Assembly (NCBI GenBank): GCA_963669175.1
Contig: OY769902.1
Coordinates: 2,400,001-2,464,000, forward strand
DNA length: 64,000 nucleotides
Source: a bacterium
GTDB lineage: Bacteria; Electryoneota; Electryoneia; Electryoneales; Electryoneaceae
Direction: 5' to 3'
The notes under the pieces were generated by a model, which searched no databases, was not told the origin of the DNA, and saw nothing but the letters and a program-made list of their open reading frames with translations. Below are positions 12,658-60,185 of the stretch, piece by piece. The position numbers and the translations under genes are program-made. Each line of letters starts with the position of its first letter. Position 1 is the first letter of the stretch.

Positions 12658-12726
12658 AACCTGATTCGATAGAAGTTAGGTAAAATGACGTCCGTATAAG
12701 GGCGCCAAAGCGGAGGAGTACTACTC

Positions 12727-13050: not shown

Positions 13051-13065
13051 TCAACTGGCGCTGAC

Positions 13066-20781: not shown

Positions 20782-20810
20782 TACCTAAGCCTCCATGCGT
20801 CATGTTGGTT

Positions 20811-26873: not shown

Positions 26874-26912
26874 ATCAGGCAGGTACAGGTCAACTTTAAA
26901 CTGGAGAACAGC

Positions 26913-30434: not shown

Positions 30435-30480
30435 TGAAGTGAAAAAAGTAGGCAGTGAAAAAAGTGAAAAAGGAAAACAC

Positions 30481-30505
30481 GTAGCCCGGCCATGCTTGGC
30501 CGGGA
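30481..30505 (+). repeat. GTAG-type REP-like palindrome, copy 1
   Basis: GTAG-CCCGGCCA-TGCT-TGGCCGGG-A; near-identical inverted copy at 31586-31610. Confidence 0.7.
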
Positions 30506-30514
30506 TTTCTCTCG

Positions 30515-30561
30515 AAGTTGTAAAGTTGTAAAGTTGTAAAGTTGTAAAGTTGTAAAGTTGT
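30515..30561. repeat. Octamer microsatellite (AAGTTGTA) x ~5.9
   Basis: Direct reading of the sequence. Confidence 0.95.
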
Positions 30562-30616
30562 TTTATAGAGAAACATAATATATAACTTGATTTATGAGAT
30601 TCAGGTAAATATTCTG

Positions 30617-30661
30617 TCCTAATTCCTAATTCCTAATTCCTAATTCCTAATTCCTAATTCC
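30617..30661. repeat. Heptamer microsatellite (TCCTAAT) x ~6.4
   Basis: Direct reading of the sequence. Confidence 0.95.
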
Positions 30662-30685
30662 AGCCTTTTCATTTTTAATTCTTAA

Positions 30686-31090
30686 TTAACCCAAAACCAG
30701 TACTTTTATCTGGCTTGGCACCAGTGTAATCCCCGGACAGTTTTCGCTCATCCCGTTATGGCCGGTAATGCTGGTCATGCGTTGCGAGGGGGAGCCGCCC
30801 GTGAGAATGGTCAGGCTGCCGAGCGTATGTTCCTGCGGTCCCATCACCATCCCCGACGCTACTCCCATGGCCACACCCGCGTTGTCCCCGTTGGTCATGG
30901 GTACTTCTGTCGCCTGGTTGAAGCTGGGCGTTCCCATGGTCAGTACGGTCATGGAAGCCGTGGGGGGGATGCAGGTCGGTCCCACAGATATATTCGGGTA
31001 AGGGATAGGCATAACCCCGGTCGGACCGGGAGTGTTACACGTATCCGGAAAACCGAGACTCATGCCGCCCATCATGGTTGAATGAAACAT
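30686..31090 (-). CDS. DUF4150 / PAAR-like spike tip protein (TagD-like)
   Basis: MFHSTMMGG...GFPDTCNTP....PIPYPN; TNGDNAGVA.GVASG..MG; R.TS.TGHN; N.PG..L.PSQ.KV. AGAGG RBS supports start 31090 rather than 31216. Confidence 0.88.
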   Translation of the reverse strand: MFHSTMMGGMSLGFPDTCNTPGPTGVMPIPYPNISVGPTCIPPTASMTVLTMGTPSFNQATEVPMTNGDNAGVAMGVASGMVMGPQEHTLGSLTILTGGSPSQRMTSITGHNGMSENCPGITLVPSQIKVLVLG

Positions 31091-31193
31091 GGTATCCTCT
31101 GACTTCAAGTTGTTGTCTACTTCCACGTCCAATGTGTCTGGTCGAAACCCGACAGGAGATCCCCGCCTTCGCGGGGAGTCGGGGCAAACTGCA

Positions 31194-31337
31194 ATGCTCT
31201 CATCCCAGCGACACAAACTGTTGCAGAATCACTGGTGCTCCTTTCATCCCAGCGAAGCAAACTGTCGCAGAATCACTGATGCTCTCATCCCAGCGACACA
31301 AACTGTCGCAGAATCACTGATGCTCTCATCCCAGCGA
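31194..31337. repeat. Tandem 41-44-bp repeat, 3 full units plus a partial
   Basis: Unit ATGCTCTCATCCCAGCGACACAAACTGT(C/T)GCAGAATCACTG starting at 31194, 31235 (variant), 31279 and 31320 (partial); no unique spacers. Confidence 0.9.
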
Positions 31338-31475
31338 AGGCTGGGATCCAGTCATATTGCGATTATAGAAAGAGGCTCAATACTCTCGCAAAGCAAGGTG
31401 CATTAGAAGTGATTGAGATTTTAACATGTTATAATGTCGATACCTGCCTGGATCCCAGCCTTCGCTGGGATGAGA
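31324..31475. repeat. 152-bp REP-doublet/MITE-like element with perfect 28-bp terminal inverted repeats
   Basis: TCTCATCCCAGCGAAGGCTGGGATCCAG (31324-31351) and its reverse complement (31448-31475). Each arm is itself palindromic. Confidence 0.85.
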
Positions 31476-31585
31476 TATCAACATTGAATGCCATCTCGGC
31501 ATATTCCATTCTTGTCTTTTCATAGTGATCAAAGAATGGCCGATTCTGCGCCAGCCTGCTAAACAGTCAGTCGGGCCAGACAATC

Positions 31586-31610
31586 TCCCGGCCAGGCATG
31601 GCCGGGCTAC
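31586..31610 (-). repeat. GTAG-type REP-like palindrome, copy 2 (inverted)
   Basis: The reverse complement reads GTAGCCCGGCCATGCCTGGCCGGGA, one mismatch from 30481-30505. Confidence 0.7.
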
Positions 31611-31626
31611 CCGCTGGCCAATAATG

Positions 31627-32319
31627 CTACCCCAGGTGAATCTGGTCCGCGTCGATTTTCACATTATGTTCAGCGATGGTGGTGATATCGCCGCCGTGAG
31701 TCGTCAGTTGTTCTTTGACCACGGTATGCTGGTTGCCGGCGTGGGTCTCGTCCATTTCTTCGATATCACGTCTGCTCCAGACAAACTTGGCGCTCAGGTC
31801 ACGGACAAATGTATCGACAAATTCCGCCGCAGCTTTCACATGGTCCATCTGGCTACGAACAAAGTTGCCGAAGAAATCAAAACGGTCGAATACGGCGCGT
31901 CCCCTGTCCGCATGCAGCGTCAGCTCATCGCTGGTCACCTGGATCTGTTCACTGGCGGCAATGGAAACAGCTTGCGCGGAAGACAACTCCAGGTCGCCGG
32001 CATCGGTATGCAGATGCGCCCCGGTCGGGAAACGCAACAGAGCAGGATCGGTTTCCGATTCACGTTCCAGCACGGCAAGTACGAAGTTCGGTTCACCTGT
32101 GCTGATGAGTACCGTATCGCCCTCGGACGGTTGCAACAGGCAGCTTGCAGCGAGGTAACATTTGCCGATACCCGCATCGGTACGCACCAGGAAAAGTCCG
32201 TTTTCATGCCCGATAACAGTACCGTGTTCCAGCCGTACGACTGTCTGTGCCGGAGTCGTGAGGATCGCATCCATGAGCGTGTCCTCCTTGTCTATCGAAA
32301 GGTTGTTCTGGTCGTTCAT
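31627..32319 (-). CDS. DUF3540 protein (TagC-like T6SS accessory)
   Basis: AASCLLQPSEGDTVLI...FVLAVLER signature; C-terminal KIDADQIHLG. Confidence 0.88.
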   Translation of the reverse strand: MNDQNNLSIDKEDTLMDAILTTPAQTVVRLEHGTVIGHENGLFLVRTDAGIGKCYLAASCLLQPSEGDTVLISTGEPNFVLAVLERESETDPALLRFPTGAHLHTDAGDLELSSAQAVSIAASEQIQVTSDELTLHADRGRAVFDRFDFFGNFVRSQMDHVKAAAEFVDTFVRDLSAKFVWSRRDIEEMDETHAGNQHTVVKEQLTTHGGDITTIAEHNVKIDADQIHLG

Positions 32320-33371
32320 GAGTTCACCTCAAAATCTTCTGCTTTCTGCAACTCTTTGTTGGTGCCCAGCGCCATGTTCTTGTTGGAACCATCCCAGATT
32401 GTTTTGTCCTGCTTGATGCGGTGCAGGTTGGCACGGTTCAGCTTGGTTTTGCTCAGGTTTGCGCCGGACAGGTCCGAATGTGACATATCCGCGTATTCCA
32501 TGTTACAGCCGCTGAAATTGGTGTTGCTGCACAGCGCAAGTTTTATCTGTGCCTGGTACAGGTTCGTACCGGAAAAATCAGCCGTAGTCAGGTCCGCTTC
32601 GCCCAGGCTCACACTTGGCAGGTCAGCGTTTTTCAACGAAGCGCCTTTCATTTTGCATCCGTGAAAAACAACAGCTTTACCCTTGGCATCATCGAAGGTT
32701 GCGCCTTCCAGATTACTCTCGATGAAATTCGCCTGTTGAATCGTTGCCCCGGTAAAAACAGCGCCTGAGAAGTTGGCTTTATGGGCCTGAACCATCCAGA
32801 AACGGTTGTCGCTGAAATCATAACCGGACAGGTCCATTTTGTTCAGAACGGTACGGTCATAGGTACAATGATCCAACACCAGGCCGTCTGTCACAGCCTT
32901 GTAAAAAACGGTACGTTTCAGATCGGCTTTCAGGAATTGCGTGTTGGTCAAAATGGTTTTAAAGAAAACGGCAAAGTACGCGTCGGTTTCCTCGAATATG
33001 GCATCAGTCAGATCCGCCTTGCCGAAATTGGTATGATGTGTTTTTGACTTGGTGAAGTTCGCGCCGACAAGGTTGGCCTTGACCAGGTTGGTCAGGCGCA
33101 GGTTCGAACGTCTGAAGCTGGCGCGTGGCGCGTTCATCTTGAACCAGTTTGCCTTCTCCAAATCAACATCTTCAATAATCGCTTCGGTCAGGTCGCATTT
33201 CCGGAAGGCTGCTCCTTTGATCTTTGATCCGGACAGGTTCGCACCGGTCAGGTTGCAGCTCATGAACGCCGCTCCGGTCAGGTCCATCCCGGATAAATCC
33301 ATCCCGGTCAAATCCTGCTTTTCGACAAAATCCCCTTCCCGGGTGATTTCCATGATCTCTTCGCGGGTCAT
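32316..33371 (-). CDS. Pentapeptide-repeat protein (TagB-like)
   Basis: Almost entirely A(D/N)(L/F)xx repeats; 4-nt overlaps with both neighbours. Confidence 0.92.
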   Translation of the reverse strand: MTREEIMEITREGDFVEKQDLTGMDLSGMDLTGAAFMSCNLTGANLSGSKIKGAAFRKCDLTEAIIEDVDLEKANWFKMNAPRASFRRSNLRLTNLVKANLVGANFTKSKTHHTNFGKADLTDAIFEETDAYFAVFFKTILTNTQFLKADLKRTVFYKAVTDGLVLDHCTYDRTVLNKMDLSGYDFSDNRFWMVQAHKANFSGAVFTGATIQQANFIESNLEGATFDDAKGKAVVFHGCKMKGASLKNADLPSVSLGEADLTTADFSGTNLYQAQIKLALCSNTNFSGCNMEYADMSHSDLSGANLSKTKLNRANLHRIKQDKTIWDGSNKNMALGTNKELQKAEDFEVNS

Positions 33372-36300
33372 GATTTCTCCTCCCCGGATGGCAACAGATC
33401 CGTACGACCGTCCAACTTGGTCATTTTCAGGTTCGCCCCCTTGAAATTGGTATCGCCAACCTTGGCGCTCATAAACTCAGAACCGTACAGGTTGGCATTG
33501 GACAGATCCGCGTTGGTAAGTGTCGCTTTCCTGAACGAGCCCAGGTGGATATTCGCGCCTTTCAGATCTGCCCCGGTCAAATCGCTCTTGGGAAACTTGG
33601 TCGCCGGGGCCGGGATAGCGCCGAACTTTGCACCAGGCATGCGTACCGTATCAAAAGTCGTGTTCTTCATTTTCGAGCCGGTGAAATCCGCGTCGGGCAG
33701 ATCGCAATGACGCCAATGCGCCTTGTTCAGCGTGATGCCGGTAAAATCCGGTTTCTTCAGCTCGGATTCACCGCCGATACGGCTGTTGAACATATCCGCG
33801 CCCTTGAAAGACACCGTCTCGCCCTGGGTATTCCAGATCAGGGTTTTGTGCATGGTCGCCTTGTCAAAGACCACTTTATCCATCTTGCTCTGGAACAGTT
33901 TTGCACCGCTGATATCGCCCTCGCTGAAGTTGGATTCAGCGAAATCGGCGTTGGTCAGGAGCGCCTTGGGCACCTTTGCCTTGGTGAAGTTGACCTTTTT
34001 GCAGGTCGCGCCGTCAAAAATGGCTGACGTGGCATCGGCTTCTGAGAAATTGGCTTCAGTCAGGTCGGCATCCTTGAAGATGGCGCGTGTCGCCTTGGTC
34101 TTGGACAGGTTCGCGCCGGGCATTTTCGCTTTCATAAAGACAGCGCTTTCAATCGAGGCGCCTGCCAGGCTTGCCCCGGTCAAGTCCGCTTCCAGCGCTT
34201 TGGCCTTGGTCAGGTCAGCGCCATCCAGCTTGGTGTTCTGCAGGTTGGTATTCAGCAGTTTGCCGTTTTTCATGTCCGCGCCGGAAAGGTCCAGGTTAGA
34301 CAGATCCAGGTTGCTCATCTGGCGTCCGGCCAGGCTTTTACCATCCTTGTGCATCTGGATGACATCTTCACGGGTCAACGGGCCGCAATCATTCAAATCC
34401 TTGCCATGTTTGGCTGCAAGCGCCACAGCCCACTCCGGAAGCGGCAACTTCCCGCCGCCTTTTTCCTTCAAGGCTTTCATGTTGGCCAGCTTGGCCATGC
34501 CCTTGTCGTGACGATCTTTCGATTTCGCCAGCAGGGCGGCGTGTTTGTCAGCCTGGGCGTCTATTTTCGCTTCCAGATCAGGTGTCAGCTTGCCGTGTTT
34601 TTTCAACGAGGCTTTCACCTGCTTGACATTGTCTTCGCTTCCTTTCTTGAGTGCGGCGAAGGGATCATGATCCTTGGGCGGCGGTTGCTTTGCTGCTGCC
34701 AGCATTTTGTCCGCGTCCACTGCGCCGTGCTTCGATACCGCTTTCTTGATATGTTCATCGGTTTGATCACGTTTGGCGGCAAGGGCGGATTTCAGCGCAT
34801 CCCCCTGTTTCTTCATATCTGCTATCGTGTAATCCGCTACGGCTTTCGGTCCGGCAGCACGCACTTCTGGTGGGGGAGTGTTCAGCTTCAGGGTCACCGG
34901 GTTGACCGGCTTCTGCCCATGCGCCGCGATCAGCTTCTGTTTCAGTTGCGGGGGAACCTTGTCATTCTTGAGCATCTCTTCGAAGAAAGATTTCTTTTCA
35001 GCCTTGGCCGCAGCCTTCTTGGTAGCTGCCTTGGCCTGCAACGCCTGTCCTTTTGCCGCCACTTTGCTCATTTTATCGATGGATTTGCTCATCCGTGCGA
35101 ATGAAGCCCTGACCTTCTTCTTATTGACCGGCACATGCGGTGCAATTTCATCTTTCACTTTCATTGTGGTTTCAAAGGAGGCTGAAATTCCTGCCAGCAC
35201 TCCAGCCATTTTCGCTGCCAGCGCCTGGGGATCGAAATTGGGATCCGGTTTGGAAAAGTTGAGACTGAGCAATTGATCCTTTTTCGCTTCCAGTTTTGCT
35301 TTTACCTCAGCGACTTTGACTTTGATATCTTCCGCGTCCTTCTTCGCAGCTTCTATCTTTTCCATGTCGATATCAACCGCACGATCCAGCTTTTTACGCA
35401 AGGCCGCCAGGTATTCTTCCATGGGTTTGGCTGGATCGGCCTGGCTTTCACAGTTCATATGAATGACAGCCACATCCAGCGCTTCGCTGTCCATAACTTC
35501 GGCCATGCCACGGCTGATCAGGATGCCCCGCTCATGATGAGGGAACAGCCAGACCGTGTCCATGTCCATCTTGATTTCCTTATACAGGAAAGGCGCATCG
35601 GCCGGCACAGGATGCGGCGCTTCCGTCTGGTCCGGGGTCTGGAATACGAAAATGCGCGGACGGATGCGTGGGACATTACCACCAACCACCGGTTTGTCCG
35701 GGTGCATACGGATACATTCGAACGGTTCGCCACCTTTCAGATAACCGGGCAACCACTGATCCGTAGGGGCGGCATTGAAGAAGGTCCAGTCCATATCTTC
35801 CGGGTAATAGGGGAAGCGTGTCCTGAACCAGGTATTATCATAGGTACCCAGTTTTTTCTGACGATAGGGATGCATGAAATCAAGCGGGGTGAATAGCGCC
35901 GGATCGGGTTTGTCCGAGGGCGCGCCGATCAGACGTCCGGGCAATTCAACATTGGGCAATGGAAGCAGTTGTTTATCGTTGCCCACATCCACCGGGACAG
36001 TTCCCTTGCCCATCATGTTTCGGGCATCTTCCGGCCCACCAAAAGCATGGGCCGCATCAACCGGCATTTCCGTAAATGGTTCAGGGTCCGTGATTACTGT
36101 AACACCAGCCGTATCCTTCCAATAGCGATCACCGAAAACCTGGAGTTTCTTCTCTACCGGTCCGAACCGGAATTCGACTTCCGATGCCGGAACCGGGGTT
36201 CCGCCGGTTGCATAGCAGTTGCCCTTGACCAAGACTTCGGCGGTCGTTTTCGGCATGCCATGATCCAGGGGGGAATCCGGGATCTCAGCAGGGACCAGCT

Positions 36301-36442
36301 TCCACAAATCCTGTTCCTGTAGCAGAGTCTTGGGGTCATCAAAGGCAAAGAAAACCAGGTGGCTGATGACCATATAGTGCTTATCCTGAATACCGAAATA
36401 GTTCAACAGGATGGACTGATCGTTTTCTTTGATGACTTTCAT
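33368..36442 (-). CDS. DUF2169 T6SS adaptor fused to a Lys/Ala-rich linker and pentapeptide repeats (TagAB-like)
   Basis: DHGMPK..AEVLV.G; VFGDRYW; AFGG; GTYD..W...RFP..P.D.DW.FFN.AP.DQ; MDTVWLFP; C-terminal ~300 aa of pentapeptide repeats. Confidence 0.9.
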   Translation of the reverse strand: MKVIKENDQSILLNYFGIQDKHYMVISHLVFFAFDDPKTLLQEQDLWKLVPAEIPDSPLDHGMPKTTAEVLVKGNCYATGGTPVPASEVEFRFGPVEKKLQVFGDRYWKDTAGVTVITDPEPFTEMPVDAAHAFGGPEDARNMMGKGTVPVDVGNDKQLLPLPNVELPGRLIGAPSDKPDPALFTPLDFMHPYRQKKLGTYDNTWFRTRFPYYPEDMDWTFFNAAPTDQWLPGYLKGGEPFECIRMHPDKPVVGGNVPRIRPRIFVFQTPDQTEAPHPVPADAPFLYKEIKMDMDTVWLFPHHERGILISRGMAEVMDSEALDVAVIHMNCESQADPAKPMEEYLAALRKKLDRAVDIDMEKIEAAKKDAEDIKVKVAEVKAKLEAKKDQLLSLNFSKPDPNFDPQALAAKMAGVLAGISASFETTMKVKDEIAPHVPVNKKKVRASFARMSKSIDKMSKVAAKGQALQAKAATKKAAAKAEKKSFFEEMLKNDKVPPQLKQKLIAAHGQKPVNPVTLKLNTPPPEVRAAGPKAVADYTIADMKKQGDALKSALAAKRDQTDEHIKKAVSKHGAVDADKMLAAAKQPPPKDHDPFAALKKGSEDNVKQVKASLKKHGKLTPDLEAKIDAQADKHAALLAKSKDRHDKGMAKLANMKALKEKGGGKLPLPEWAVALAAKHGKDLNDCGPLTREDVIQMHKDGKSLAGRQMSNLDLSNLDLSGADMKNGKLLNTNLQNTKLDGADLTKAKALEADLTGASLAGASIESAVFMKAKMPGANLSKTKATRAIFKDADLTEANFSEADATSAIFDGATCKKVNFTKAKVPKALLTNADFAESNFSEGDISGAKLFQSKMDKVVFDKATMHKTLIWNTQGETVSFKGADMFNSRIGGESELKKPDFTGITLNKAHWRHCDLPDADFTGSKMKNTTFDTVRMPGAKFGAIPAPATKFPKSDLTGADLKGANIHLGSFRKATLTNADLSNANLYGSEFMSAKVGDTNFKGANLKMTKLDGRTDLLPSGEEKS

Positions 36443-36480
36443 GAAAATCCTCTATCAAGGTCCACTAGTGAATGGATCCA

Positions 36481-39270
36481 CTAGAGCTTGGCCGTTACGG
36501 TATCAACTGTTTTGAGACTTACTTCGGCTTCATGTGTAAGCAACGTCGCCACACGTTGTGTCAGCGCTTCCATCTCTTGCTGCATTTCGCTGGTTTGTTG
36601 CTTGATCAGGTCAACATCCTGCCGTAACGCATGGATTTCCTGACCGCTTTCCATGATTCTCTCAAAGATGGTAAAGGAATGCAGACGGGAAGCCTCTCCT
36701 TTCGAAACCTCTTGGTTTGCCTCGGTGACAATTGGGCTCAGGTCTGAGGCGGCGCCATTCATCTGGCTCTCTTCTTCGGTCAGCTCGTCAATGGCTCCGG
36801 CTACTGTATCCTTTTCACCATCGGCAGTCGTTGTGGCTTCGGCCAGCCTGGTGTTGAGTTCGTTGATTTCCTGCTGCATCTCATCAATCTTTTCGCTGGT
36901 TTCATGCATCTTTTCATGAGCAGCATGAACATCCTCTTTTTCAAACTTCATTTCCTTGAAGTCAAATTTGTATTCATTGGCAAAACCGCTTACCATTTTG
37001 AGAAAATGCCCGAGATTTACACGTTCTTCCAGCGCACCCACGAAAGCAAATTCATTAAGAATCACTATCTTTATATAGACACCGCAGTGTATGGTAAACT
37101 CACCTTTGGTGTTGATGATAACGCCACGTTTTTCGGCCTCTTCTTCTTCCTCATCTTCGTCTTCGTCTTCGTCTTCGTCTTCTTCCTCCTCGTCATCATC
37201 ATCGTCGTCGTCGTCATCATCATCATCATCATCGCCATCATCGCCACCGTCGTCATCACCACCGTCGTCATCGCCGCCGTCGTCGTCGCCACCGTCGTCA
37301 TCGCCACCGTCGTCATCGCCGCCGTCGTCATCGCCGCCGTCGTCATCGCCGCCGTCGTCATCGCCGCCGTCGTCATCGCCGCCGTCGTCATCGCCGCCGT
37401 CGTCATCACCGCCGTCGTCATCGCCGCCGTCGTCATCACCGCCGTCGTCACCTTCGTCGCCGCCACCGCCGTCATCGCCGCCGTCGTCATCGTCGCCGTC
37501 GTCATCGCCACCGTCGTCATCGCCACCGTCACCACCTTCGTCGCCGCCACCGCCGTCACCGTCTCCATCATCCCCGGGGTTATCCAAGCTCCCTTCATCG
37601 TCATCATCTTCCGGGGCTGTGGTATCCATGGCCGAGACACTTTGATTTGACGGTTTATCATAAGCTCCTTGTGCAGGTGAAGCATTATCTGGACTGGAGT
37701 CGGAATCGTCGTCATCTCCTCGCGGATCGAATTTGTAGCCGATGGTCATGAATGTCTTCTGGTTGGGGACATGGAGGTGCATATGTTGGGAGCCCTCTTT
37801 GTCCTCCATGTGCATTTCATTTCCCGATCCTGTTTTCATCTTGCCCTGGGTCTGGTTGTCACCGGTGACCATACTGGCTGTTTCCGGGTTGGGCACCGTG
37901 CCAAGGATTACTGGTTTATCGGGATTACCGTCGATAAATCCTATTGTTACTTCGGTATCTTTGTGGAGTGGGAAATGCCAGCCGTGATCTGATCCTGCGT
38001 ACGGTTGCATCATTCGTAAATAACAACTTGCTTTCCCGCCGCTGAGTCCTGACTGATCAAAGGGCATTTTTACCTTGTAGCGTCCCTGCTCATCCAGTTC
38101 CGCATATTTCCCGCTTCCGGCAGCATCAATCTTTGCCTGAATTGTTCCATATACCCTGGTTGCATCTGTTTTCTTTTCAGGACGAAACTGCACTTCTGCC
38201 GGGATTGCGGTAAAACGGCAACTGAAGCGCTGTTTCTGCTCGCCGTCGCCATCATTCACGCTGACTCCGTCCAGTAGGTGGATAGCATGGCTTCCTTCCA
38301 GATGGACATCAGTGACCATATAGCTCCGGTTCATGTCCTCCCGGAAGTGATCAAACAGGGTGAAGGTAAAACCGGTACGGATTCCTGTTGCTGTGCTTTC
38401 GCCATGATAGAGGTCGCGACGACACAACCATTCTTCACGTCGGATCCTGGCCAGACGATTGCCTTGATCAGGGGTCTTAAAATTCTCGCCATATGAGTAC
38501 ACCATCCCCATTCCGGCCGCATCAATAGCTGATTCGGCTGTCAGGTCCAGCAACGGGGTTTCGTAGTTATACCCCTTGAGCTGAACTTTGCCCGGGATGA
38601 GACGACGCTTGTGACGGAAATTGAGGATTACCTGCTCACGTTGGAGTGTGTCCATCCCTGAAGGGGGGGAGTAGCGCAGTTGAGGCGTCTGGGCAACCGG
38701 CTTGTGAGCAATGCGGGTGTCGGTGAAAACAACACGCTCAACCGGACCATCCTGCTCGAAGAAATAATAAATGCCTTCAAACTCAAGCCATCTGTGCAGG
38801 AAATGCAGGTGGCTTTCATTGTACTGGCAAACATATTCATACGTTGGATACTCATTTTGCAGTCGGATGTCGTAATCCTGACGGGTGAATTTTGCGTCTT
38901 TCAGGATATCTTCCAGAATCTGCTTGATGGATTTGTTGAGAAAGATCTGGTTGTGGCGTGTATTGGCCAACCACCAGAGACGTGGAACAAGCTGTACTTC
39001 ATAGAGGTATTTGTCCTTCAATTCCCTGAGATGTAACGCAGAAGCGGTGATGCCATGATAGTGAATATCTTCTGTCGCTGTCTTGATTGTGATCGTGGCA
39101 TGCTGATTTACCACCGAATCCAAGTCTATATCCGGATTGTCAGAGATCAATGTGAGCGTGAACTCGTACGGCACAGAGAGCGCTTCACGCCCTTTCAGGT
39201 CAACGACTGTAAACGTGTTGGCTGGCAGTTTCCCGACGGAAAAATCAAATATTTTATCAGTACTCAGCAC
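36481..39270 (-). CDS. vgrG: VgrG/TssI spike protein 3 with Asp/Gly/Glu-rich insertion and heptad tail
   Basis: G.EALS.PY.F; QYNESHLHF..RWLE.EGIYYFF; YNYETP; ELDEQGRYKV..PFD; MQPYAG...HFPL...TEV...F..G.PD.P.I.G. Confidence 0.92.
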   Translation of the reverse strand: MLSTDKIFDFSVGKLPANTFTVVDLKGREALSVPYEFTLTLISDNPDIDLDSVVNQHATITIKTATEDIHYHGITASALHLRELKDKYLYEVQLVPRLWWLANTRHNQIFLNKSIKQILEDILKDAKFTRQDYDIRLQNEYPTYEYVCQYNESHLHFLHRWLEFEGIYYFFEQDGPVERVVFTDTRIAHKPVAQTPQLRYSPPSGMDTLQREQVILNFRHKRRLIPGKVQLKGYNYETPLLDLTAESAIDAAGMGMVYSYGENFKTPDQGNRLARIRREEWLCRRDLYHGESTATGIRTGFTFTLFDHFREDMNRSYMVTDVHLEGSHAIHLLDGVSVNDGDGEQKQRFSCRFTAIPAEVQFRPEKKTDATRVYGTIQAKIDAAGSGKYAELDEQGRYKVKMPFDQSGLSGGKASCYLRMMQPYAGSDHGWHFPLHKDTEVTIGFIDGNPDKPVILGTVPNPETASMVTGDNQTQGKMKTGSGNEMHMEDKEGSQHMHLHVPNQKTFMTIGYKFDPRGDDDDSDSSPDNASPAQGAYDKPSNQSVSAMDTTAPEDDDDEGSLDNPGDDGDGDGGGGDEGGDGGDDDGGDDDGDDDDGGDDGGGGDEGDDGGDDDGGDDDGGDDDGGDDDGGDDDGGDDDGGDDDGGDDDGGDDDGGDDDGGDDDGGDDDGGDDDGGDDGDDDDDDDDDDDDDDEEEEDEDEDEDEDEEEEEAEKRGVIINTKGEFTIHCGVYIKIVILNEFAFVGALEERVNLGHFLKMVSGFANEYKFDFKEMKFEKEDVHAAHEKMHETSEKIDEMQQEINELNTRLAEATTTADGEKDTVAGAIDELTEEESQMNGAASDLSPIVTEANQEVSKGEASRLHSFTIFERIMESGQEIHALRQDVDLIKQQTSEMQQEMEALTQRVATLLTHEAEVSLKTVDTVTAKL
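37140..37560. repeat. Coding low-complexity tandem repeat (15-bp unit encoding GGDDD, then poly-Asp and ED tracts)
   Basis: Repeated GCCGTCGTCATCGCC on the + strand; translates on the - strand as (GGDDD)n-Dn-(ED)n-En inside vgrG3. Confidence 0.95.
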
Positions 39271-39273
39271 TTT

Positions 39274-41592
39274 TTATCCCTCCTCGAGAATTTCTGCCGT
39301 AACCGAATGGAGTGCACTCATTGCGCTCTGCAATGTTGTCATCAATTGCTGCATCTCTGCCATTTGTGACTTGATCGTACTCACTGCTGTTTTCTGGCCG
39401 GCTACTTCTGTGTTCATTTCAGCCATTTCATCAACACAGGTTTTCATACCGGCCTCATTTATCCGGATTGTGTCCAGTGAGTCGGCTATCGTAGTCTTAA
39501 GATCATTCAGATATTCCTTTGTGCCATCGATTTTTTCCTTCGCTTGCGTCATCTTGGTTTCCGCGCCCGCAACCAGGGAACGTGAACCTTCCAGCCGTTC
39601 TTCCGTCTCAGCCACTGTCTGTTTGATCCCATCAATCTTGCTGGTTGATTCGGAAATCGTTTCTTTCGTTTCGCTGATATTTGTTTTTAATCCATTTACT
39701 TTATTATGAAGTTCATTCATGTCGGTGTGTACCCATTTATTGTCCGTATGGCTGGTGCATTCCAGCTCATCACGGCGTCCTCCAAGGAAACGCAGCATGA
39801 ACGGGGTGTTGATTTTTTCCTCAAAGCCACCGATAAAGACCATCTTTTCAATGAGGGCCAGGCTGTTTTTAGTAGCGGCTTCAATCTCCAGCTTGGCGCC
39901 CGCCCCAAGGGTGATGCCATGTTTTTTCAAGTCAGGCGCAAGGTCAAAATTCTTATGCAGGTTGTAGAACCACTTGGCAATGGTCTCTAGGGCTTCCCCT
40001 TGCGCCTGGGATGACTGTTGATCTGTATACATTCCCGGCGGAGGATCGTTGGGAGCGCCGATGCGTAAAAAAGAACTTGTCGCCGGGACATGGAACTGTA
40101 TGCGTTCTTCGCCCTGCTTATCTTCGAAATGCAGCTCGTTCCCTGAAGATGACCGTAGCCGTGAACGTGTCTGGTTGTCTGAATCAACCAGGCTGGGAGA
40201 TCGAGGATTTGGTGCGCTTCCGGCGATGATAGGCCGATCCGGGTCGCCATTGGTGAAAGCAATCAGGACTTCCGCGCCACGATGCAGCGGCATGTGCATG
40301 CCATGTCCGGAACCACCATAAGGTTGAATCCGTCGCAACCAGGTACTCGCTTTACCATCCTTACGGTCGGACAGATCGAATGGGAAAATGACTTTGTAAC
40401 GGCCCTGTTCATCCAGTTCCGCGTATTGACCGCTTCCGGCAGAATCGATCCAGCCCTGTATGGTGCCGTTGATCCTGGCTTTCGGGGTTTTTATCTCCGG
40501 ACGGAACTGAATATCGGATGGAATCGCCGTAAACGTATTCCTGTAATAAGGCGCCTTTTCAACTTCTGAAAGTTCGTTCTTCAGTCCGGCCACAAAGTAA
40601 GCGACCTGGTCACCTTCCATGTGGATGTCAGTTGTCAGGAAAGAACGATTCAAAGCATCACGATAGTGTCCGGTCATTTCAAAAACGAAACCGGGCAGGA
40701 TATAGGGGACAGAACTTTCCCCGTAGTACGTATCCTTTCTACAGGCCAGCTCTTCGGCACGGATCTTCGCCAAGCGAGTCCCTTCGTCCGGGGTTAGGAA
40801 GTACTCCCCGTAAGTAGTCATCTCGCCACGCCCGTTCTGATCCACATCGGCTTCCCCGATCATCGGGAGCGTCGGTTTTTCAAAGTTGTAGTCGCGGAGA
40901 GTTACTTTCTGAGGAATGAGTCGTTTTCGCTGACTGAAAACTCGAACGACCTCATCACGATGCAGGTTATCCAGGCCAGATGGGGTGGAGTATATAACCT
41001 TCGTGCCTTCTGATGCAGGCGCATGAGCTGTGCGTGTGTCGGTAAAGATGACCTTTTCGGTATCCTGACTGTGGTCGAAATAGTAGTAGATACCTTCACG
41101 TTCGCACCAGCGATTGATAAAATTGAAATGGCTTTCGCCATATTGACAGACAAACTTGTGACCGGGATGATCCTGCTGCAAGCGGAAATCATAGGCAGAT
41201 GATTCAATACGTGCGTCTTTCAGCACTCCGGACAACATTGTCTTCACATCCTGATCGAGGAATACCTGGTTGTGATGGGTATGGGACAACCACGAAAATC
41301 GCGGGGCCAGTTCCACGGTAAACTGGGCATATTCCTGGACAGTACGGTCATATTCCGCATGGGTTACGATCCCGTGGAAAGTCACATCCTGGTCGTCTCG
41401 ATGGATTATAAAACGAGCCGGACGATTGACCAGTTTTTCCGGGTCCATCGTGGCATCCGTAGTCAACAGGTGAATGGTGAAATGATACGGCTTGGATAAT
41501 GCCGCTTCTCCTGTGAAACGGACCACGAAAAAACTGTCATCTGTTCCGCTGCCTGAATAGAAGCTGAATTTTCTGTTGACAAGAATACTCAT
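39274..41592 (-). CDS. vgrG: VgrG/TssI spike protein 2 with heptad tail
   Basis: CQYGESHFNF..RW.EREGIYYYF; DYNFEKP; ELDEQGRYKVIFPFD; QPYGG..HGMHMPL..GAEV...F..GDPDRPII.G. Confidence 0.93.
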   Translation of the reverse strand: MSILVNRKFSFYSGSGTDDSFFVVRFTGEAALSKPYHFTIHLLTTDATMDPEKLVNRPARFIIHRDDQDVTFHGIVTHAEYDRTVQEYAQFTVELAPRFSWLSHTHHNQVFLDQDVKTMLSGVLKDARIESSAYDFRLQQDHPGHKFVCQYGESHFNFINRWCEREGIYYYFDHSQDTEKVIFTDTRTAHAPASEGTKVIYSTPSGLDNLHRDEVVRVFSQRKRLIPQKVTLRDYNFEKPTLPMIGEADVDQNGRGEMTTYGEYFLTPDEGTRLAKIRAEELACRKDTYYGESSVPYILPGFVFEMTGHYRDALNRSFLTTDIHMEGDQVAYFVAGLKNELSEVEKAPYYRNTFTAIPSDIQFRPEIKTPKARINGTIQGWIDSAGSGQYAELDEQGRYKVIFPFDLSDRKDGKASTWLRRIQPYGGSGHGMHMPLHRGAEVLIAFTNGDPDRPIIAGSAPNPRSPSLVDSDNQTRSRLRSSSGNELHFEDKQGEERIQFHVPATSSFLRIGAPNDPPPGMYTDQQSSQAQGEALETIAKWFYNLHKNFDLAPDLKKHGITLGAGAKLEIEAATKNSLALIEKMVFIGGFEEKINTPFMLRFLGGRRDELECTSHTDNKWVHTDMNELHNKVNGLKTNISETKETISESTSKIDGIKQTVAETEERLEGSRSLVAGAETKMTQAKEKIDGTKEYLNDLKTTIADSLDTIRINEAGMKTCVDEMAEMNTEVAGQKTAVSTIKSQMAEMQQLMTTLQSAMSALHSVTAEILEEG

Positions 41593-41625
41593 GGGTGTTT
41601 CCTTGTATTCTAACAGTCCACCGGA

Positions 41626-43893
41626 TCAGTCGCGTTCAAACAGCGCTGCGGTTTCCATATTGGTAACGTAGTTGTCAAAACCACATTCAAATGTTTCCTG
41701 TTTGATCGCATCGGCCTGCACTCGCATTGTCTTTATCTGTTCCTTCATTTCAGCCGTGCTGTCTTTCAATCCCCTGGCCAGCGAAACATTTTCGATTACT
41801 TTTAATTCTTCATCTGAGATCTTGGACATAAGCTGTTGAATTTCTTCAACAGTTCCAGCCAGTGAATCCTTGGTCTCGGACATTTCCTGCTTTGCTGCGA
41901 CAATTTTGTCTCGCTGACCATTCACGAGTTCTTTGGTATCAGCAATCTTATCTTTCACACCTACGACACTCTGGCGTGCCGCGGCTACTTTTTCTTCTGT
42001 TTCGGCCACCTTTGTCTTCAAGTCATTGATTTTATTTTCCATCTGGGTGATGTGTTTTTCCACACCCTTCAGATTCATCGTGTGCGGACTCAGGTAACTG
42101 CTGGTAATGCCAAGCGAATACTTGCCGCCAATAAGAACGCCCAGTTCGCCATTGGTGATGATTTTCTGTTCGAATCCGACACACCCCATAAAATTGTTGC
42201 CCAGGATAATTTCGTTGGACAGACCGGCATAGACATTGAGGTTCAAACCAGCAGTCATCTTGAAGCCGTCTGTATCCACCAGCGTCCAGTAAGGGGCGGC
42301 AGTTTCCCCGCCTTCCGATGCCGGGGGGGGAGGATCGTTGGGAGCGCCCATGCGGACAAACGACTTTTTCGCCGGGACATGCATCTGGATACGTTCGCTG
42401 CCTTCCTTATCCTCGAAATGCATTTGCGTCTGGTTGCCGGTTTGAATCACCGATTTTGTCTGGTTTTCTCCCTTCACCTGGGAAGGAGTGGAGGGATTAT
42501 TCACCGCTCCGGCGATGATGGGACGGTCCGGATCACCATCGGTGAAGGTGACCAGCACCTCAGTGCCCTTATGCAAGGGGAAGTGCATGCCGTGGTTGCT
42601 GCCGGTATAAGGTTGCGCCATGCGGATATAACAACTGGCCTTACCATCAGAACGCCCGGACAGGTCAAACGGCATCACAATCTTGTACCGTCCCTGTTCA
42701 TCCAGCTCTGCATACTGTCCACTGCCAGCAGCATCAATCTTCGCCTCGATCACACCCTGAATCTTCGGCTTGGGAGTTTTGCACTCGGTACGGAACTGCA
42801 AGTCACTCTCAATCGCATGGAACACATTCTTGTAATAGGGATTCTTCTCGTGTTCACTCAATCCCTGCTTGATTCCTGCGATCAGGTATCCCGCCTGGTC
42901 GCCGGACATCTCCATGCGAATCGTCAGGTATTTCCGGTTCAGGTTATCACGATTATGCTTGGCAAGGGTGAAAGTGAATCCGGGACGGATGAACGGGACT
43001 GTGCTGGCCGCATGATAGGTGTTTTTCCTGCATTGATAGCATTCGGCGCGAATTTTTGCCAGACGTTTGCCTGAATCCGGTGTTTTGTAGTGTTCGCCAT
43101 AGGTGATAATCTCGCCCAGACCATGATCGTCTACCGACGCTTCCTGGATCAGGAGGTCATCCGGCTTTTCATAGTTGTATTCCACCAACTGCACCTTGGC
43201 GGGAGTCATGTCACGACGCCAGGTGAACTGCTTTACAACCTCATCACGATGCAAAGTGTCCAGACCTGAAGGGGGGAGATAGGTGATGGTGCCGCCCTGG
43301 GGCATGTCCACATGGGCTATCTTTGTATCGGTAAGGATCAGCTTCTCTTCGCTGTCACCCTGCTCGAAGTAATAGTATATCCCTTCTCGCTCGATCCAGC
43401 GATGGACAAAATTGAAATGAGTCTCGTTGTACTGGCAGATATACGGGAAGGTATCATGGTTGCCCTGCAAACGGATATCAAAATCCTTGCTGGTTAAACC
43501 GCCATCCTTCAGGACTTTTTCCAGTATCCCCTTTACATCCTTGTCCAGGAATACCTGGTTGTGATGGGTTAATTGCAGCCACCAGAACTTGGGAACCAGC
43601 ACAGCTTCGTAGAAATAATACCCATTAAACTCACGTTCGAGGGTAAACTCAATTACAATTCCATGATAGGGAACATCCTCGCCGTCTTTACGATGAACAG
43701 TGAAAGTCGCCTTGCGCTGAACAACGCTGTCCAGATCAATATCACCGTTGGTGGAAACGAGTTGGATGGTAAACTGGTACGGTTCCGATAATCCTTCACG
43801 ACCTGTGAAACTGACCACCGCAAAGGTGTCCTCAGTCAACGCAGGTGATTTGGATGAGAATGAGAAGCGCATTTGGGACGTGTTTTCCAGCAT
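41626..43893 (-). CDS. vgrG: VgrG/TssI spike protein 1 with heptad tail
   Basis: Same VgrG motifs. Start placed at ATG 43893 (GGGGAG RBS, collinear with the paralogues); the ORF extension to 44280 overlaps tetR and is not credible. Confidence 0.93.
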   Translation of the reverse strand: MLENTSQMRFSFSSKSPALTEDTFAVVSFTGREGLSEPYQFTIQLVSTNGDIDLDSVVQRKATFTVHRKDGEDVPYHGIVIEFTLEREFNGYYFYEAVLVPKFWWLQLTHHNQVFLDKDVKGILEKVLKDGGLTSKDFDIRLQGNHDTFPYICQYNETHFNFVHRWIEREGIYYYFEQGDSEEKLILTDTKIAHVDMPQGGTITYLPPSGLDTLHRDEVVKQFTWRRDMTPAKVQLVEYNYEKPDDLLIQEASVDDHGLGEIITYGEHYKTPDSGKRLAKIRAECYQCRKNTYHAASTVPFIRPGFTFTLAKHNRDNLNRKYLTIRMEMSGDQAGYLIAGIKQGLSEHEKNPYYKNVFHAIESDLQFRTECKTPKPKIQGVIEAKIDAAGSGQYAELDEQGRYKIVMPFDLSGRSDGKASCYIRMAQPYTGSNHGMHFPLHKGTEVLVTFTDGDPDRPIIAGAVNNPSTPSQVKGENQTKSVIQTGNQTQMHFEDKEGSERIQMHVPAKKSFVRMGAPNDPPPPASEGGETAAPYWTLVDTDGFKMTAGLNLNVYAGLSNEIILGNNFMGCVGFEQKIITNGELGVLIGGKYSLGITSSYLSPHTMNLKGVEKHITQMENKINDLKTKVAETEEKVAAARQSVVGVKDKIADTKELVNGQRDKIVAAKQEMSETKDSLAGTVEEIQQLMSKISDEELKVIENVSLARGLKDSTAEMKEQIKTMRVQADAIKQETFECGFDNYVTNMETAALFERD

Positions 43894-43963
43894 GTGCAAA
43901 CTCCCCGGTTGCAGGCTGAGCGATAGGTCCACAAAATTGGGCGAAGACCTCAAGAGATCATAC

Positions 43964-43992
43964 AGTATAATACACCCTCCCAACCTTTTCAA
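43964..43992 (-). promoter_or_regulatory. Sigma70-type promoter for the vgrG operon
   Basis: The minus strand reads TTGAAA-17 nt-TATACT, about 70 nt upstream of the vgrG1 ATG. Confidence 0.6.
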
Positions 43993-44045
43993 TGGATACC
44001 CGTCACACCAACCATGAACTTGGTGAACAGATAAAAAAATGCCTC

Positions 44046-44105
44046 TTGCCGTAAAGGTAACTATGGCATATATTTGAATCAATGACCAAATTATTTTTAC
44101 AGTCA
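44046..44105 (+). promoter_or_regulatory. Sigma70-type promoter with a possible TetR operator
   Basis: TTGCCG(44046)-17 nt-TATATT(44069), followed by the palindrome TGAC-N15-GTCA (44083-44105). Confidence 0.5.
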
Positions 44106-44143
44106 CAGAAACATAAGTTACAGGCAACAGGAGAACAGGAACG

Positions 44144-44755
44144 ATGCCCAAAGCGTTTTCGGAAGAAGAACAAAACCGGATCAGGGAAGCGTTGTTGGCA
44201 TCAGGGCGGGAACGGTTCACCCGGTTTGGGGTGCGTAAGACTACAGTCGATGAGCTGACCGCGGATGCCGGGATCGCCAAGGGGACGTTTTACCGTTTTT
44301 ACGAGTCCAAGGAACTGTTATACCTCGAGGTTCTCGAAGAAGCGGAAGAACGGATTCGTGGCGGCCTGATGCAGGGGATACGTGACGGAGCAGGGGTGGG
44401 TTATGTGTTGTCGGCATTTCTGCATGGTTTGGAGCAGGAACCGCTTTTCAGCCATATCGTGCAGCCGGGTGAGATGGAATACCTGGTCAGTCGAGTCGGC
44501 GCGGAACGGTTGCAGGTTCACATGAAACGCGACCGTGAAGAGCTGCTGGACATGGTCATAGAAATGCAGCATCGCGGCGCTGTCAGTGAGAACATCGAGG
44601 CGGAAGTGCTGGTCGAGTTGCTGCGCGCCCTGATCGCGATTCCCTTGCTGCAACCACGCATGAACCTCAGTAACAAAGCCGAAGTCTATCAACTGCTGAC
44701 GTCTGCCCTTGAGGCTGGACTGGGACCGGGAGGCGACCATGCTGACCGTGAATGA
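44144..44755 (+). CDS. TetR/AcrR family regulator
   Basis: F...GVRKTTVDEL...AGIAKGTFYRFYESKE.L helix-turn-helix. Confidence 0.95.
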   Translation: MPKAFSEEEQNRIREALLASGRERFTRFGVRKTTVDELTADAGIAKGTFYRFYESKELLYLEVLEEAEERIRGGLMQGIRDGAGVGYVLSAFLHGLEQEPLFSHIVQPGEMEYLVSRVGAERLQVHMKRDREELLDMVIEMQHRGAVSENIEAEVLVELLRALIAIPLLQPRMNLSNKAEVYQLLTSALEAGLGPGGDHADRE

Positions 44756-45593
44756 CCTCAGCTATACCTATCCTGGGAACGACGCTGAAACCCTGCACGG
44801 GCTGAGTTTCGCCATCCCGAAAGGGGAGATTTTCGGCTTCCTGGGACCGTCCGGGGCCGGGAAGAGCACCACGCAGAACCTGTTGATCGGGCTGTTGAAG
44901 GGGTATCGTGGGCATGTCAATTTTGCCGGACGGGAACTCTCCGACTGGAAAAATGACCTCTACACACGTGTCGGCGTGGTCTTCGAGGTGCCCAACCTGT
45001 TCGGCAAGTTGACCGCGCTGGAGAACCTTCGTTTTTTCGGGGCGTTGTATGGAAGGATCTCCAACGATCCGCTTGAATTGCTCGAACTGGTTGGTCTGAA
45101 AGAGGACGCGGACAAGAAGGTGTCCAGCTTCTCCAAGGGCATGCGGATGCGGTTGAATTACTGCCGTGCATTTCTGCATGATCCGGAATTCCTCTTTCTG
45201 GATGAACCGACAGCCGGGTTGGACCCTGCCAATGCTCGCATTATCCGTGATCATATTCTCCGGCAGAAAGCTACGGGCAAGACCATTTTCCTGACTACTC
45301 ACAACATGCACGACGCTGATCAGTTGTGTGATCGGGTGGCGTTTATCGTGGATGGCAGGCTGGAGACCATCGCCTCGCCACGTGAGCTGAAGCTTTCCCA
45401 CGGCACCCGTCGAGTCCGGGTGGAACACCGTGTTAATGGAGGGACAGCCAGCAGGGAATTCGAGTTGGATAAACTTGCGGATAACGGCGGCTTCCTGGAC
45501 ATCCTGCGTGCGGGGAAAGTTGAGACCATTCATACCCTTGAGGCCACACTGGAAGACATTTTTATGGATGTCACCGGCAGGAGGCTGACATGA
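44739..45593 (+). CDS. ABC exporter ATP-binding subunit
   Basis: GPSGAGKST; signature FSKGM; Walker B FLDEP; H-loop TTHNM. GGAGG before ATG 44739. Confidence 0.95.
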   Translation: MLTVNDLSYTYPGNDAETLHGLSFAIPKGEIFGFLGPSGAGKSTTQNLLIGLLKGYRGHVNFAGRELSDWKNDLYTRVGVVFEVPNLFGKLTALENLRFFGALYGRISNDPLELLELVGLKEDADKKVSSFSKGMRMRLNYCRAFLHDPEFLFLDEPTAGLDPANARIIRDHILRQKATGKTIFLTTHNMHDADQLCDRVAFIVDGRLETIASPRELKLSHGTRRVRVEHRVNGGTASREFELDKLADNGGFLDILRAGKVETIHTLEATLEDIFMDVTGRRLT

Positions 45594-51305: not shown

Positions 51306-51340
51306 AACCCCCCCTTTTGTACACTGAAAATTGTTTTCTT

Positions 51341-60026: not shown

Positions 60027-60185
60027 ATTCCAATATGGGCAGAGTCTAAATGAGAAGATTCATATTCGGCAAGGTTCTTCAACAATGTCTGAAGCGCCCT
60101 TATAGGATGCTAAGAATTCCAAATATCTTGAAAAAATAGCAGTTTATTGCGATTCGGTTCGATAGAAAAACGATGCGAGGTTAAA

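Follow-up and report, generated by a model that had tools for sequence, protein, structure and literature searches.

An operon of three VgrG spikes and Class III Tvp proteins as the probable detached spike supply of a type VI secretion system in Candidatus Electryoneota

DUF2169 proteins have been described as chaperones of DUF4150 "PIPY" caps (Sachar et al. 2025, PMC11883445), and in synteny type C, which accounts for 37% of DUF2169 genes, a fusion of DUF2169 to a pentapeptide-repeat protein (PRP) occurs together with a PRP protein, a DUF3540 protein, VgrG, and DUF4150 (PMC11883445). In Serratia's type VI secretion system (T6SS), the proteins TvpAB, TvpB, TvpC, and Paar1 have been named "Class III" (Monlezun, Earl & Coulthurst 2026, PMC13373197), and VgrG1-dependent firing requires all four of them. 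There, TvpC, which is predicted to be a trimeric OB-fold plus beta-prism protein without gp27, forms a pre-complex with TvpAB, TvpB, and Paar1, and VgrG1 then takes its place (PMC13373197). The names tagAB, tagB, tagC, and tagD are the older Burkholderia names for these genes, which are present in Burkholderia T6SS-3, -4, and -5 (PMC13584744), and Class III-type accessory sets are known from Serratia, Pantoea, Cronobacter, and Burkholderia (PMC13373197, PMC13584744, PMC11883445). Here, we analyze a minus-strand run of genes at positions 30686-43893 of a 64,000-nucleotide stretch (the window) of contig OY769902.1, from a bacterium of the phylum Candidatus (Ca.) Electryoneota (assembly GCA_963669175.1). 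Judged by its gene families and their order, this operon is the published Class III Tvp or DUF2169 synteny type C set, and we propose that it is very probably the detached spike supply of the single canonical T6SS-i in its genome, providing three VgrGs, a PIPY cap, and Class III Tvp chaperones.

The run consists of seven intact genes, all with Pfam scores well over the curated cut-offs, and the gene content and order given in the original prediction (three vgrG genes, DUF2169-pentapeptide, pentapeptide, DUF3540, and DUF4150) were confirmed with Pfam. Lengths are in amino acids (aa):

41626-43893, minus strand: vgrG_a, VgrG spike, 755 aa from the probable start ATG 43893 (Pfam; TIGR03361, 363 bits), with a C-terminal heptad-repeat tail
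39274-41592, minus strand: vgrG_b, VgrG spike, 772 aa (Pfam; TIGR03361), residues 622-771 predicted as a single helix
36481-39270, minus strand: vgrG_c, VgrG spike, 929 aa (Pfam; TIGR03361), in which a stretch of about 170 Asp/Gly/Glu residues precedes a C-terminal heptad tail
33368-36442, minus strand: tvpAB (tagAB), DUF2169 plus a C-terminal pentapeptide-repeat domain, 1024 aa (Pfam)
32316-33371, minus strand: tvpB (tagB), stand-alone pentapeptide-repeat protein, 351 aa (Pfam)
31627-32319, minus strand: tvpC (tagC), DUF3540, 230 aa (Pfam), predicted to combine an OB-fold with a spike-like part and to lack gp27
30686-31090, minus strand: PAAR-like cap gene, DUF4150/PIPY domain alone, probably 134 aa, without a toxin extension (Pfam; orthologue alignment)

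All three VgrGs, which are 41-48% identical to one another, match Phage_GPD and Phage_base_V in Pfam (246.5, 229.8, and 266.1 bits; curated cut-off 30.1) and TIGR03361 in NCBIfam (340-363 bits against 186). TvpAB carries DUF2169 (PF09937) at residues 21-311 (258.2 bits against 25) and pentapeptide repeats (PF00805, 140.1 bits) in its C-terminal third, TvpB matches PF00805 with 172 bits, and TvpC matches DUF3540 (PF12059) with 159.4 bits against 27.9. The cap reaches 101.8 bits against a cut-off of 31 for Tox-PAAR-like/DUF4150 as listed (30686-31216) and 102.9 bits for PF13665 (cut-off 31) with a corrected start; it carries the PIPY motif, whose Tyr and the following Pro are invariant in 27 aligned sequences. 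Two start codons were revised. The TTG start listed for vgrG_a (44280) adds about 129 residues that are unmatched in the paralogue alignment, and on the basis of this alignment and the sequence, ATG 43893 is most likely the true start. For the cap gene, the start is most likely ATG 31090, which is preceded by AGAGGA and fits the alignment with 26 orthologues. From vgrG_a to tvpC, neighboring genes are separated by at most 38 bases or overlap by 4 bases, with tvpB overlapping both tvpAB and tvpC by 4 bases each.

Compared with the Class III Tvp locus of Serratia marcescens Db10, the window shares vgrG, DUF2169 with pentapeptide repeats, the second pentapeptide-repeat gene, DUF3540, and a toxin-less DUF4150/PIPY cap in the same order, and a classical toxin domain is absent from both. 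The window VgrGs (750-930 aa) fall within or above the 700-800 aa reported for Class III. On the other hand, the window has three tandem vgrG genes where Serratia has one, and no Vai1-like immunity gene follows vgrG as it does in Serratia. The Serratia Tvp genes lie inside the T6SS cluster, while the window operon lies 2.33 Mb from its core genes. It is also the only spike set of its genome, whereas in the examples presented in PMC13373197, at least one further VgrG exists besides the Tvp-linked one. A long beta-prism tail, as predicted for Serratia VgrG1, is a reported correlate of Class III, although no strict criterion, and was not found in the window VgrGs, whose tail is a heptad-repeat helix. 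The phyla for which PMC13373197 lists TvpA do not include Ca. Electryoneota.

The operon had originally been called "T6SS-5-like" after vgrG-5/tagAB-5/tagB-5/tagC-5/tagD-5 of Burkholderia. The resemblance to tagAB, tagB, tagC, and tagD is real, as the accessory families and a C-terminal extension of VgrG are shared, and Burkholderia TagD, like the window cap, has no effector domain (PMC13584744). However, the label is too narrow because the same general Class III set is found in Burkholderia T6SS-3, -4, and -5 and in other genera. We surveyed 80 related loci, the best 80 of 216 TvpC relatives, and found no Burkholderia locus among them; one Paraburkholderia TvpC matches that of the window at 32% identity (E 4.7e-10). 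Compared by accessory genes and not by the VgrG-5 tail, the window shows no special kinship with T6SS-5 and no evidence of a eukaryotic target. The set itself is tightly kept across the surveyed loci, with denominators that vary with the flanking sequence present: tvpB adjoins tvpC in 74 of 75 loci, a PAAR-like gene adjoins tvpC in 74 of 76, tvpAB is present in 65 of the 66 with enough upstream sequence, and vgrG is present in 55 of 58. In some Desulfobacterota and Polaromonas genomes (loci L009, L016, L017, L050, and L069), the complete vgrG-tvpAB-tvpB-tvpC-cap module is present two or three times, either in tandem or in facing orientation.

Among the remaining open reading frames (ORFs) of the window, 28 were scanned and gave no match to a T6SS core, toxin, or immunity family, in agreement with the original prediction, which had left two options for the spike genes: docking on a core machine encoded elsewhere or a stand-alone role such as adhesion. 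The genome is a single contig (C1) of 5,447,365 bases, 95.9% complete by markers, of which the window is C1:2,400,001-2,464,000. On its minus strand, at about 4,778,300-4,797,010 and 2.33 Mb from the operon, we found a T6SS-i core cluster encoding TssJ, TssK, TssL (DotU), TssM, TagF, TssA, TssB, TssC, Hcp, TssE (53 bits against a cut-off of 27.2), TssF, TssG, and ClpV, in which there is no vgrG and no PAAR gene. With VgrG supplied by the window, all 13 core components of a canonical T6SS-i are present. The presence of DotU/TssL, an IcmF-type TssM, and a TssJ lipoprotein sets the system apart from the T6SS-iii of Bacteroidota, which has no TssJ, TssL, or TssM and instead uses TssN, TssO, and TssP (these three were not searched). 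Genome-wide, there are exactly three Phage_GPD matches, all in the window, one TssC, one Hcp, and no PAAR_motif match, and tblastn detected no further copies of DUF2169, DUF3540, or DUF4150, leaving the window cap as the only PAAR-type gene found. An extracellular contractile injection system or another contractile partner was considered and dropped, with no Phage_sheath_1 match and only three gpD-type matches in the genome. Since the operon encodes the only VgrGs and cap, and the cluster is the only contractile machine found, the operon is very likely the spike and cap supply of this distant core. Because the genome has no other VgrG or PAAR gene, the machine should not fire without the operon. 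Of the two options, docking on a core encoded elsewhere is therefore borne out by a complete core that lacks vgrG and PAAR, and a machine-less spike kit is not needed.

A module that acts independently of the core, as an adhesin, a surface spike, or part of another contractile machine, or one that is a decaying remnant, might be suspected from the distance of 2.33 Mb and from the report that 8% of small vgrG clusters are in genomes without T6SS-i (Abby et al. 2016, PMC4793230). We regard this as very unlikely, however, since the same genome carries a complete core missing exactly these parts and no phage-type sheath, the VgrGs retain the gp27 head that contacts Hcp, and the seven ORFs are intact in two species, with ratios of nonsynonymous to synonymous divergence (dN/dS) of 0.08-0.21. 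Separation of spike genes from the core is also not unusual, with 35% of T6SS-i replicons reported to have vgrG outside the main locus (PMC4793230). Among the 45 related loci with full 10-kb flanks, only nine have a core gene in the flanks, and none was matched in the other 36. As in the orphan vgrG islands described in PMC4793230, vgrG and a PAAR-type gene stand together in the window, apart from the main locus. Those islands usually add spikes and toxin-immunity pairs to a cluster with its own vgrG, whereas the window island is the sole spike source and has no toxin-immunity pair. What looked like a machine-less spike kit would thus come down to an essential, detached spike operon of a normal T6SS-i, with accessory genes whose role was worked out in 2025-2026.

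By analogy with Serratia, TvpC would act as a trimeric VgrG mimic without the gp27 head, first joining the cap, TvpAB, and TvpB in a pre-complex, from which a VgrG trimer would then displace it. Once capped, the spike would be taken up by the core machine encoded 2.33 Mb away, at its baseplate and Hcp tube, and TvpAB and TvpB would be left behind. The payload, or the part on which a payload docks, would most likely be the VgrG C-terminal extension, in which the heptad helix of about 150 residues in each VgrG should make a trimeric coiled coil. From the gene set and its published counterparts, we infer how the spike assembles, that it docks on the distant core, and what the tails do.

Several observations weigh against this proposal. 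A distance of 2.33 Mb separates the operon from the core, no regulator common to both was identified, and the case for their partnership comes from sequence and predicted structure. The cap gene is separated from the rest of the operon by a 536-base repeat spacer with a terminator-like hairpin. The fold evidence for TvpC as a VgrG mimic is weak: its monomer model from AlphaFold2 has a predicted local distance difference test (pLDDT) score of 69, with a confident OB-fold at residues 29-85 and poor confidence elsewhere; Foldseek returned generic OB-folds first and then phage P2 gpV as the best spike match (E 3e-3, 144 columns), with spikes of the antifeeding prophage (AFP), the Photorhabdus virulence cassette (PVC), and pyocins also among the matches at weak E-values; and BLASTP of TvpC against VgrG_b gave no significant similarity. 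These predicted fold matches are consistent with the published OB-fold and spike description of TvpC and fall short of proof. In addition, no effector of any recognized class was found, and the cap would have to dock on a VgrG whose chain appears to continue through a linker and further beta structure into a coiled coil, unlike the published beta-prism tail. The published model of pre-complex and exchange was built on beta-prism tails and places the cap at the prism's blunt end, and coiled-coil tails raise the question of where the cap sits.

We found that a congener (locus L004, G001:C45) has the same three vgrG and four accessory genes beside the same TetR/ABC neighbor, at 70% nucleotide identity; the split between spike and core genes is older than the two sampled species. 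Between them, dN/dS is 0.11 for tvpAB, 0.16 for tvpB, 0.21 for tvpC, and 0.08 for the cap gene, rough values given a dS of 1.1-1.9, and the saturated dS of vgrG_b gave no ratio. Ratios in this range (0.08-0.21) between two species indicate purifying selection.

The congener also bears on whether the region might be an assembly chimera in which Desulfobacterota DNA was joined to a contig of the Fibrobacterota-Chlorobiota-Bacteroidota (FCB) group. Foreign protein affinities and short-read contigs that break on both sides of the PAAR-like gene would fit a chimera, but the operon stands beside the same TetR/ABC genes in a second species of the genus, which supports the junction at about 44 kb independently. 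Short-read contigs from two runs, possibly of the source sample, include a 13,951-base piece over 37571-45500, which runs from vgrG_c through vgrG_a into the ABC genes, and another piece over 31447-37132, both with 0 differences and with even depth, which for the 13,951-base piece is about 22-25 and 29-41. These contigs break only at repeats, in the Asp/Gly array of vgrG_c and on both sides of the cap gene, and the breaks fall at multi-copy repeats. The GC content of the operon (0.48-0.54) is the same as that of its flanks. Altogether, a chimera is so improbable that we give it next to no weight. The original prediction had proposed a coverage check over 30.4-44 kb, and such a check succeeds over 31447-37132 and 37571-45500, whereas the junction at 30.4-30.7 kb is not bridged independently because the contigs break at the repeats there.

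The original prediction described the host as an FCB-group sulfite reducer, and this holds. The best named relative of the window PyrB is that of Ca. Electryonea clarkiae (81%), followed by Calditrichaeota, KSB1, and Ignavibacteria at about 70%. NCBI taxonomy places Electryonea in the FCB group, phylum Ca. Electryoneota, and the window encodes five proteins with type IX secretion system (T9SS) sorting tails and a dsrA/dsrB-like gene pair; the host is, however, not a member of the Bacteroidota. A proteobacterial or Desulfobacterota host with a canonical T6SS had been named as grounds for rejecting the idea of a transferred kit; the T6SS-i is indeed canonical, but the host belongs to Electryoneota. 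Within the GTDB phylum of the host, which comprises 79 species genomes, TssC is present in five. A search of 41 genomes found DUF3540 in two, the host and its single congener, and in none of 14 other genomes of the family and none of 25 from other families.

All module proteins are nearest to those of Desulfobacterota (up to 53% identity for VgrG, 48% for the TvpA domain, and 66% for the cap), with Myxococcota and Pseudomonadota lower. In a tree of TvpA domains (68 rows, quick IQ-TREE), the window and its congener form a pair with a support of 100 and a stem of 0.7, inside a clade of 21-22 rows comprising 12-13 Thermodesulfobacteriota, two Nitrospirota, one Pseudomonadota, one Myxococcota, and five unlabelled rows. 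The core points the same way: TssC of the host is 73%, 71%, 66%, 66%, and 64% identical to that of five Desulfobacterota-type genomes with related Tvp loci and only 60%, 50%, and 48% identical to that of the three other genomes in its phylum that carry a T6SS. Every module protein has its nearest relatives at loci in metagenome-assembled genomes of Desulfobacterota and Nitrospirota (for example, L007 of Syntrophorhabdaceae, L067 and L081 of Desulfovibrionaceae, and L011 of Nitrospira), which share with the window the TvpA clade, tandem vgrG copies, and a tail with a charged linker and heptad helix. In the L007 genome, TssC is about 13 kb from the vgrG/Tvp genes and, at this distance, belongs with them to one cluster; several relatives have the order ClpV-vgrG-tvpAB-tvpB-tvpC-cap-TssJ. 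In contrast, the window and its congener form a long branch (0.7) by themselves and have spike and core genes split.

Both kit and core are nearest to Desulfobacterota and uncommon in the host phylum, which makes horizontal acquisition of the entire T6SS probable, as had been suggested earlier for a Desulfobacterota-type spike kit. The simplest reading of these sequence comparisons is that an ancestor of the genus took up a whole Desulfobacterota-type T6SS cluster, which would later have been broken between clpV and vgrG; we infer the direction of this transfer from distribution, not from a rooted test. Directly downstream of clpV, where relatives have vgrG, lies a gene with HTH_3 and Peptidase_M78 domains (ImmA/IrrE-type; L002:11592-12710), which suggests a mobile or rearranged junction. 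Two literature accounts of Ca. Electryoneota make no mention of a T6SS, and this phylum is a new host for a proteobacterial-type T6SS-i with Class III Tvp chaperones.

We next describe the VgrG tails, which set this branch apart. The PDB and TIGR03361 matches of the VgrGs end near residue 500 (about 504 for VgrG_b in the PDB), beyond which the chains continue for 250-420 residues. The term "effector-less" in the original prediction therefore needs to be qualified: no recognizable toxin domain is present, but each VgrG carries a long C-terminal extension. A common plan is found in 26 aligned tails of the branch: the motif GAPNDP is followed by a charged linker that varies, then by a short beta-like segment and a helix of about 150 residues. 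The linker is short in vgrG_a and runs to about 170 residues of Asp, Gly, and Glu in vgrG_c. AlphaFold2 predicts residues 622-771 of VgrG_b as one unbroken helix with a pLDDT above 90. Heptad z-scores are 5.3 for vgrG_a, 7.6 for vgrG_b, and 6.2 for vgrG_c; the hydrophobic fraction at the a and d positions is 0.75-0.76 compared with 0.53-0.57 in shuffles, and the tails have power at period 3.5 and none at period 2. In Pfam and NCBIfam, the extensions matched coiled-coil families only, below threshold, and no toxin or enzyme domain.

Across the related loci, the heptad test was applied to 74 VgrG tails, which were assigned to groups from the TvpA tree and without regard to the tails themselves; two tails shorter than 120 residues and those whose high-scoring segment pairs run off the end of the locus were left out of the counts. 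In the TvpA clade of the window, 19 of 25 tails have a heptad z of at least 3 (median 4.2), compared with one of 48 in the Myxococcota/Pseudomonadota clade (median 1.25), where 19 of 48 tails have a strong period-2 signal, as expected for a long beta-prism. Since related loci are not independent, this contrast is a description and not a statistical test. It suggests that the tails of Class III VgrGs are of two kinds, beta-periodic and heptad coiled-coil, which track TvpA phylogeny, and that a predicted heptad tail marks the Desulfobacterota/Nitrospirota/Electryoneota branch. A word-based homologue search with the VgrG_b tail (520-772) returned only itself and an orthologue with 58% identity, a method that is silent on wider spread. 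An atlas search with the same tail gave best values of 0.84-0.86, for phage hypothetical proteins and Gp5_C clusters, below the 0.9 level taken as a lead. The word "coiled" is absent from the main text of PMC13373197, its appendix aside, and the only link between VgrG and a coiled coil found among the papers listed by a literature search is a 20-residue linker in an Acinetobacter VgrG. The heptad spike tail is therefore apparently a variant undescribed in that literature.

The tails are also the best candidates for payload or cargo docking. There are no candidate toxin or immunity genes between or after the vgrG genes, and searches of the genome found no DUF1795 and no Rhs repeats; a search for DUF4123 was uninformative because the control matched no genome. 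In Serratia, VgrG1-dependent toxic activity has been assigned to no separate protein, and VgrG1 itself is suspected (PMC13373197). With one T6SS, three spikes, one cap, and no recognizable effector, adaptor, or Rhs protein, the host would offer a clean case for the VgrG tail as sole payload.

Instead of being payloads, the coiled-coil tails might be docking platforms for effectors encoded elsewhere, with one set per paralogue ("à la carte"), which we consider possible at a tentative level. VgrG C-terminal extensions can recruit cargo, coiled coils typically bind proteins, and the three tails are strongly diverged, with identities of 28% and 21% over the last 295 residues. However, cargo effectors are usually encoded beside VgrG, none is encoded in the window, and neither DUF1795 nor Rhs was found in the genome. 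Upstream of tssJ (C1:4,798,570-4,803,972; L003:13567-18972) are genes for a 748-aa lipoprotein-like protein, a 551-aa protein with a signal peptide, and a 543-aa protein with an OmpA domain. The 748-aa and 551-aa proteins were considered as effectors and dropped, as they carry lipoprotein or Sec signals, are genus-specific, and look like envelope proteins. A second, paralogous pair lies at 5.372-5.375 Mb, and the sister species has two such pairs, which likewise counts against docked cargo encoded beside the core; neither protein was found in the four searched Desulfobacterota genomes that have the related T6SS.

Long trimeric helices also resemble viral fusion proteins. A Burkholderia T6SS-5-type anti-eukaryotic system, in which the VgrG tails would fuse the membranes of protists or other eukaryotic cells, would fit this likeness, the accessory set shared with vgrG-5 and tagAB-5 to tagD-5, and the C-terminal domain of VgrG-5 that is required for cell fusion (PMC13373197). 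The set is not specific to T6SS-5, though, the nearest relatives of the window are Desulfobacterota and Nitrospirota with no Burkholderia in the best 80 of 216, and the composition of the tails shows no hydrophobic segment like a fusion peptide. Altogether, we consider a fusogen of this type improbable.

A further idea, which we find rather doubtful, is that the Desulfobacterota/Nitrospirota/Electryoneota branch has a toxin-free T6SS in which the spike itself is the weapon, tipped with a tethered coiled coil of about 150 residues per chain (about 20 nm). If so, the fired tail would be a harpoon, an anchor, or a membrane-perturbing or membrane-fusing rod on the target envelope, and the tip would come in three specificities, one for each paralogue, with an expandable poly-Asp/Gly tether in one of the three. 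Anaerobic sulfur-cycling or syntrophic lineages could then use the device for cell-cell contact and not for killing.

The sequences around and within the spike operon include the following features:

43964-43992, minus strand: promoter-like site TTGAAA-17-TATACT with 10 of 12 consensus matches, in the gap between vgrG_a and the TetR gene
44144-44755: TetR gene, divergent, with an ABC transporter, upstream of the operon
31091-31626: repeat-filled spacer from tvpC to the cap gene, with a 41-base tandem array, hairpins resembling repetitive extragenic palindromes (REP-like), a terminator-like hairpin, and a promoter-like site
30435-30685: repeats downstream of the operon (7-mer and 8-mer arrays plus a REP-like hairpin), followed by the end of a convergent FG-GAP gene

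The gap between vgrG_a and the divergent TetR gene is 250 bases. The sigma70-like promoter of the original prediction is a real match to the consensus, but the region has 15 promoter-like sites compared with 12.2 +/- 3.8 in shuffles, and the site at 43992-43964 is therefore a lead and not evidence. Site counts in the promoter and terminator scan were in general near the shuffle means. In the spacer between tvpC and the cap gene, the 41-base array has 3.4 copies, short-read contigs break, and word depth is high; in the sister species, the two genes are adjacent and the spacer is absent. REP-like hairpins of the form CCCGGCCAnGCnTGGCCGGG, which has 44 matches genome-wide, stand on both sides of the cap gene. 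Part of the Asp/Gly tract of vgrG_c is encoded by a tandem repeat of 15 bases at 37238-37530, with about 20 copies and 89% matches. Short-read assemblies break there. The acidic tract at the corresponding place in the sister species is a different one, so the length may differ between strains. Both the T6SS core cluster and the spike operon are dotted with multi-copy repeat elements, and two "ORFs" of the core cluster, of 105 aa (L002:16602-16919) and 116 aa (L003:12875-13225), are repeat translations with dozens of genome copies. The convergent gene downstream of the operon encodes an FG-GAP protein with a T9SS tail.

Elsewhere in the window, a dsr-type locus at 8108-14457 encodes two NIR_SIR proteins (397 and 361 aa) that are DsrA/DsrB-like, together with a 580-aa GltD-like flavoprotein with Fer4_20, which we take to be DsrL-like, and a CobB/CobQ-type amidotransferase, presumably DsrN-like. 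At 14821-21991, a gene for a 1986-aa protein (DUF4011, AAA_11/AAA_12 helicase, MTES_1575 nuclease, and DUF3320) lies beside a DDE_Tnp_1 transposase gene. The T9SS C-terminal sorting domains, at 951-3290, 22695-30434, and 47127-53119, are on BNR/sortilin, subtilase, FG-GAP, and beta-helix/NosD proteins and one unknown protein. The GC content of the 48-52 kb stretch is 0.36-0.41, compared with 0.44-0.57 in the rest of the window. A 622-aa fumarase/aspartase-type lyase with an N-terminal cyclic-nucleotide-binding domain is encoded at 53468-55336, and a second HTH_3 and Peptidase_M78 (ImmA/IrrE-type) gene, followed by a DUF4145 gene, is found at 58902-60848.

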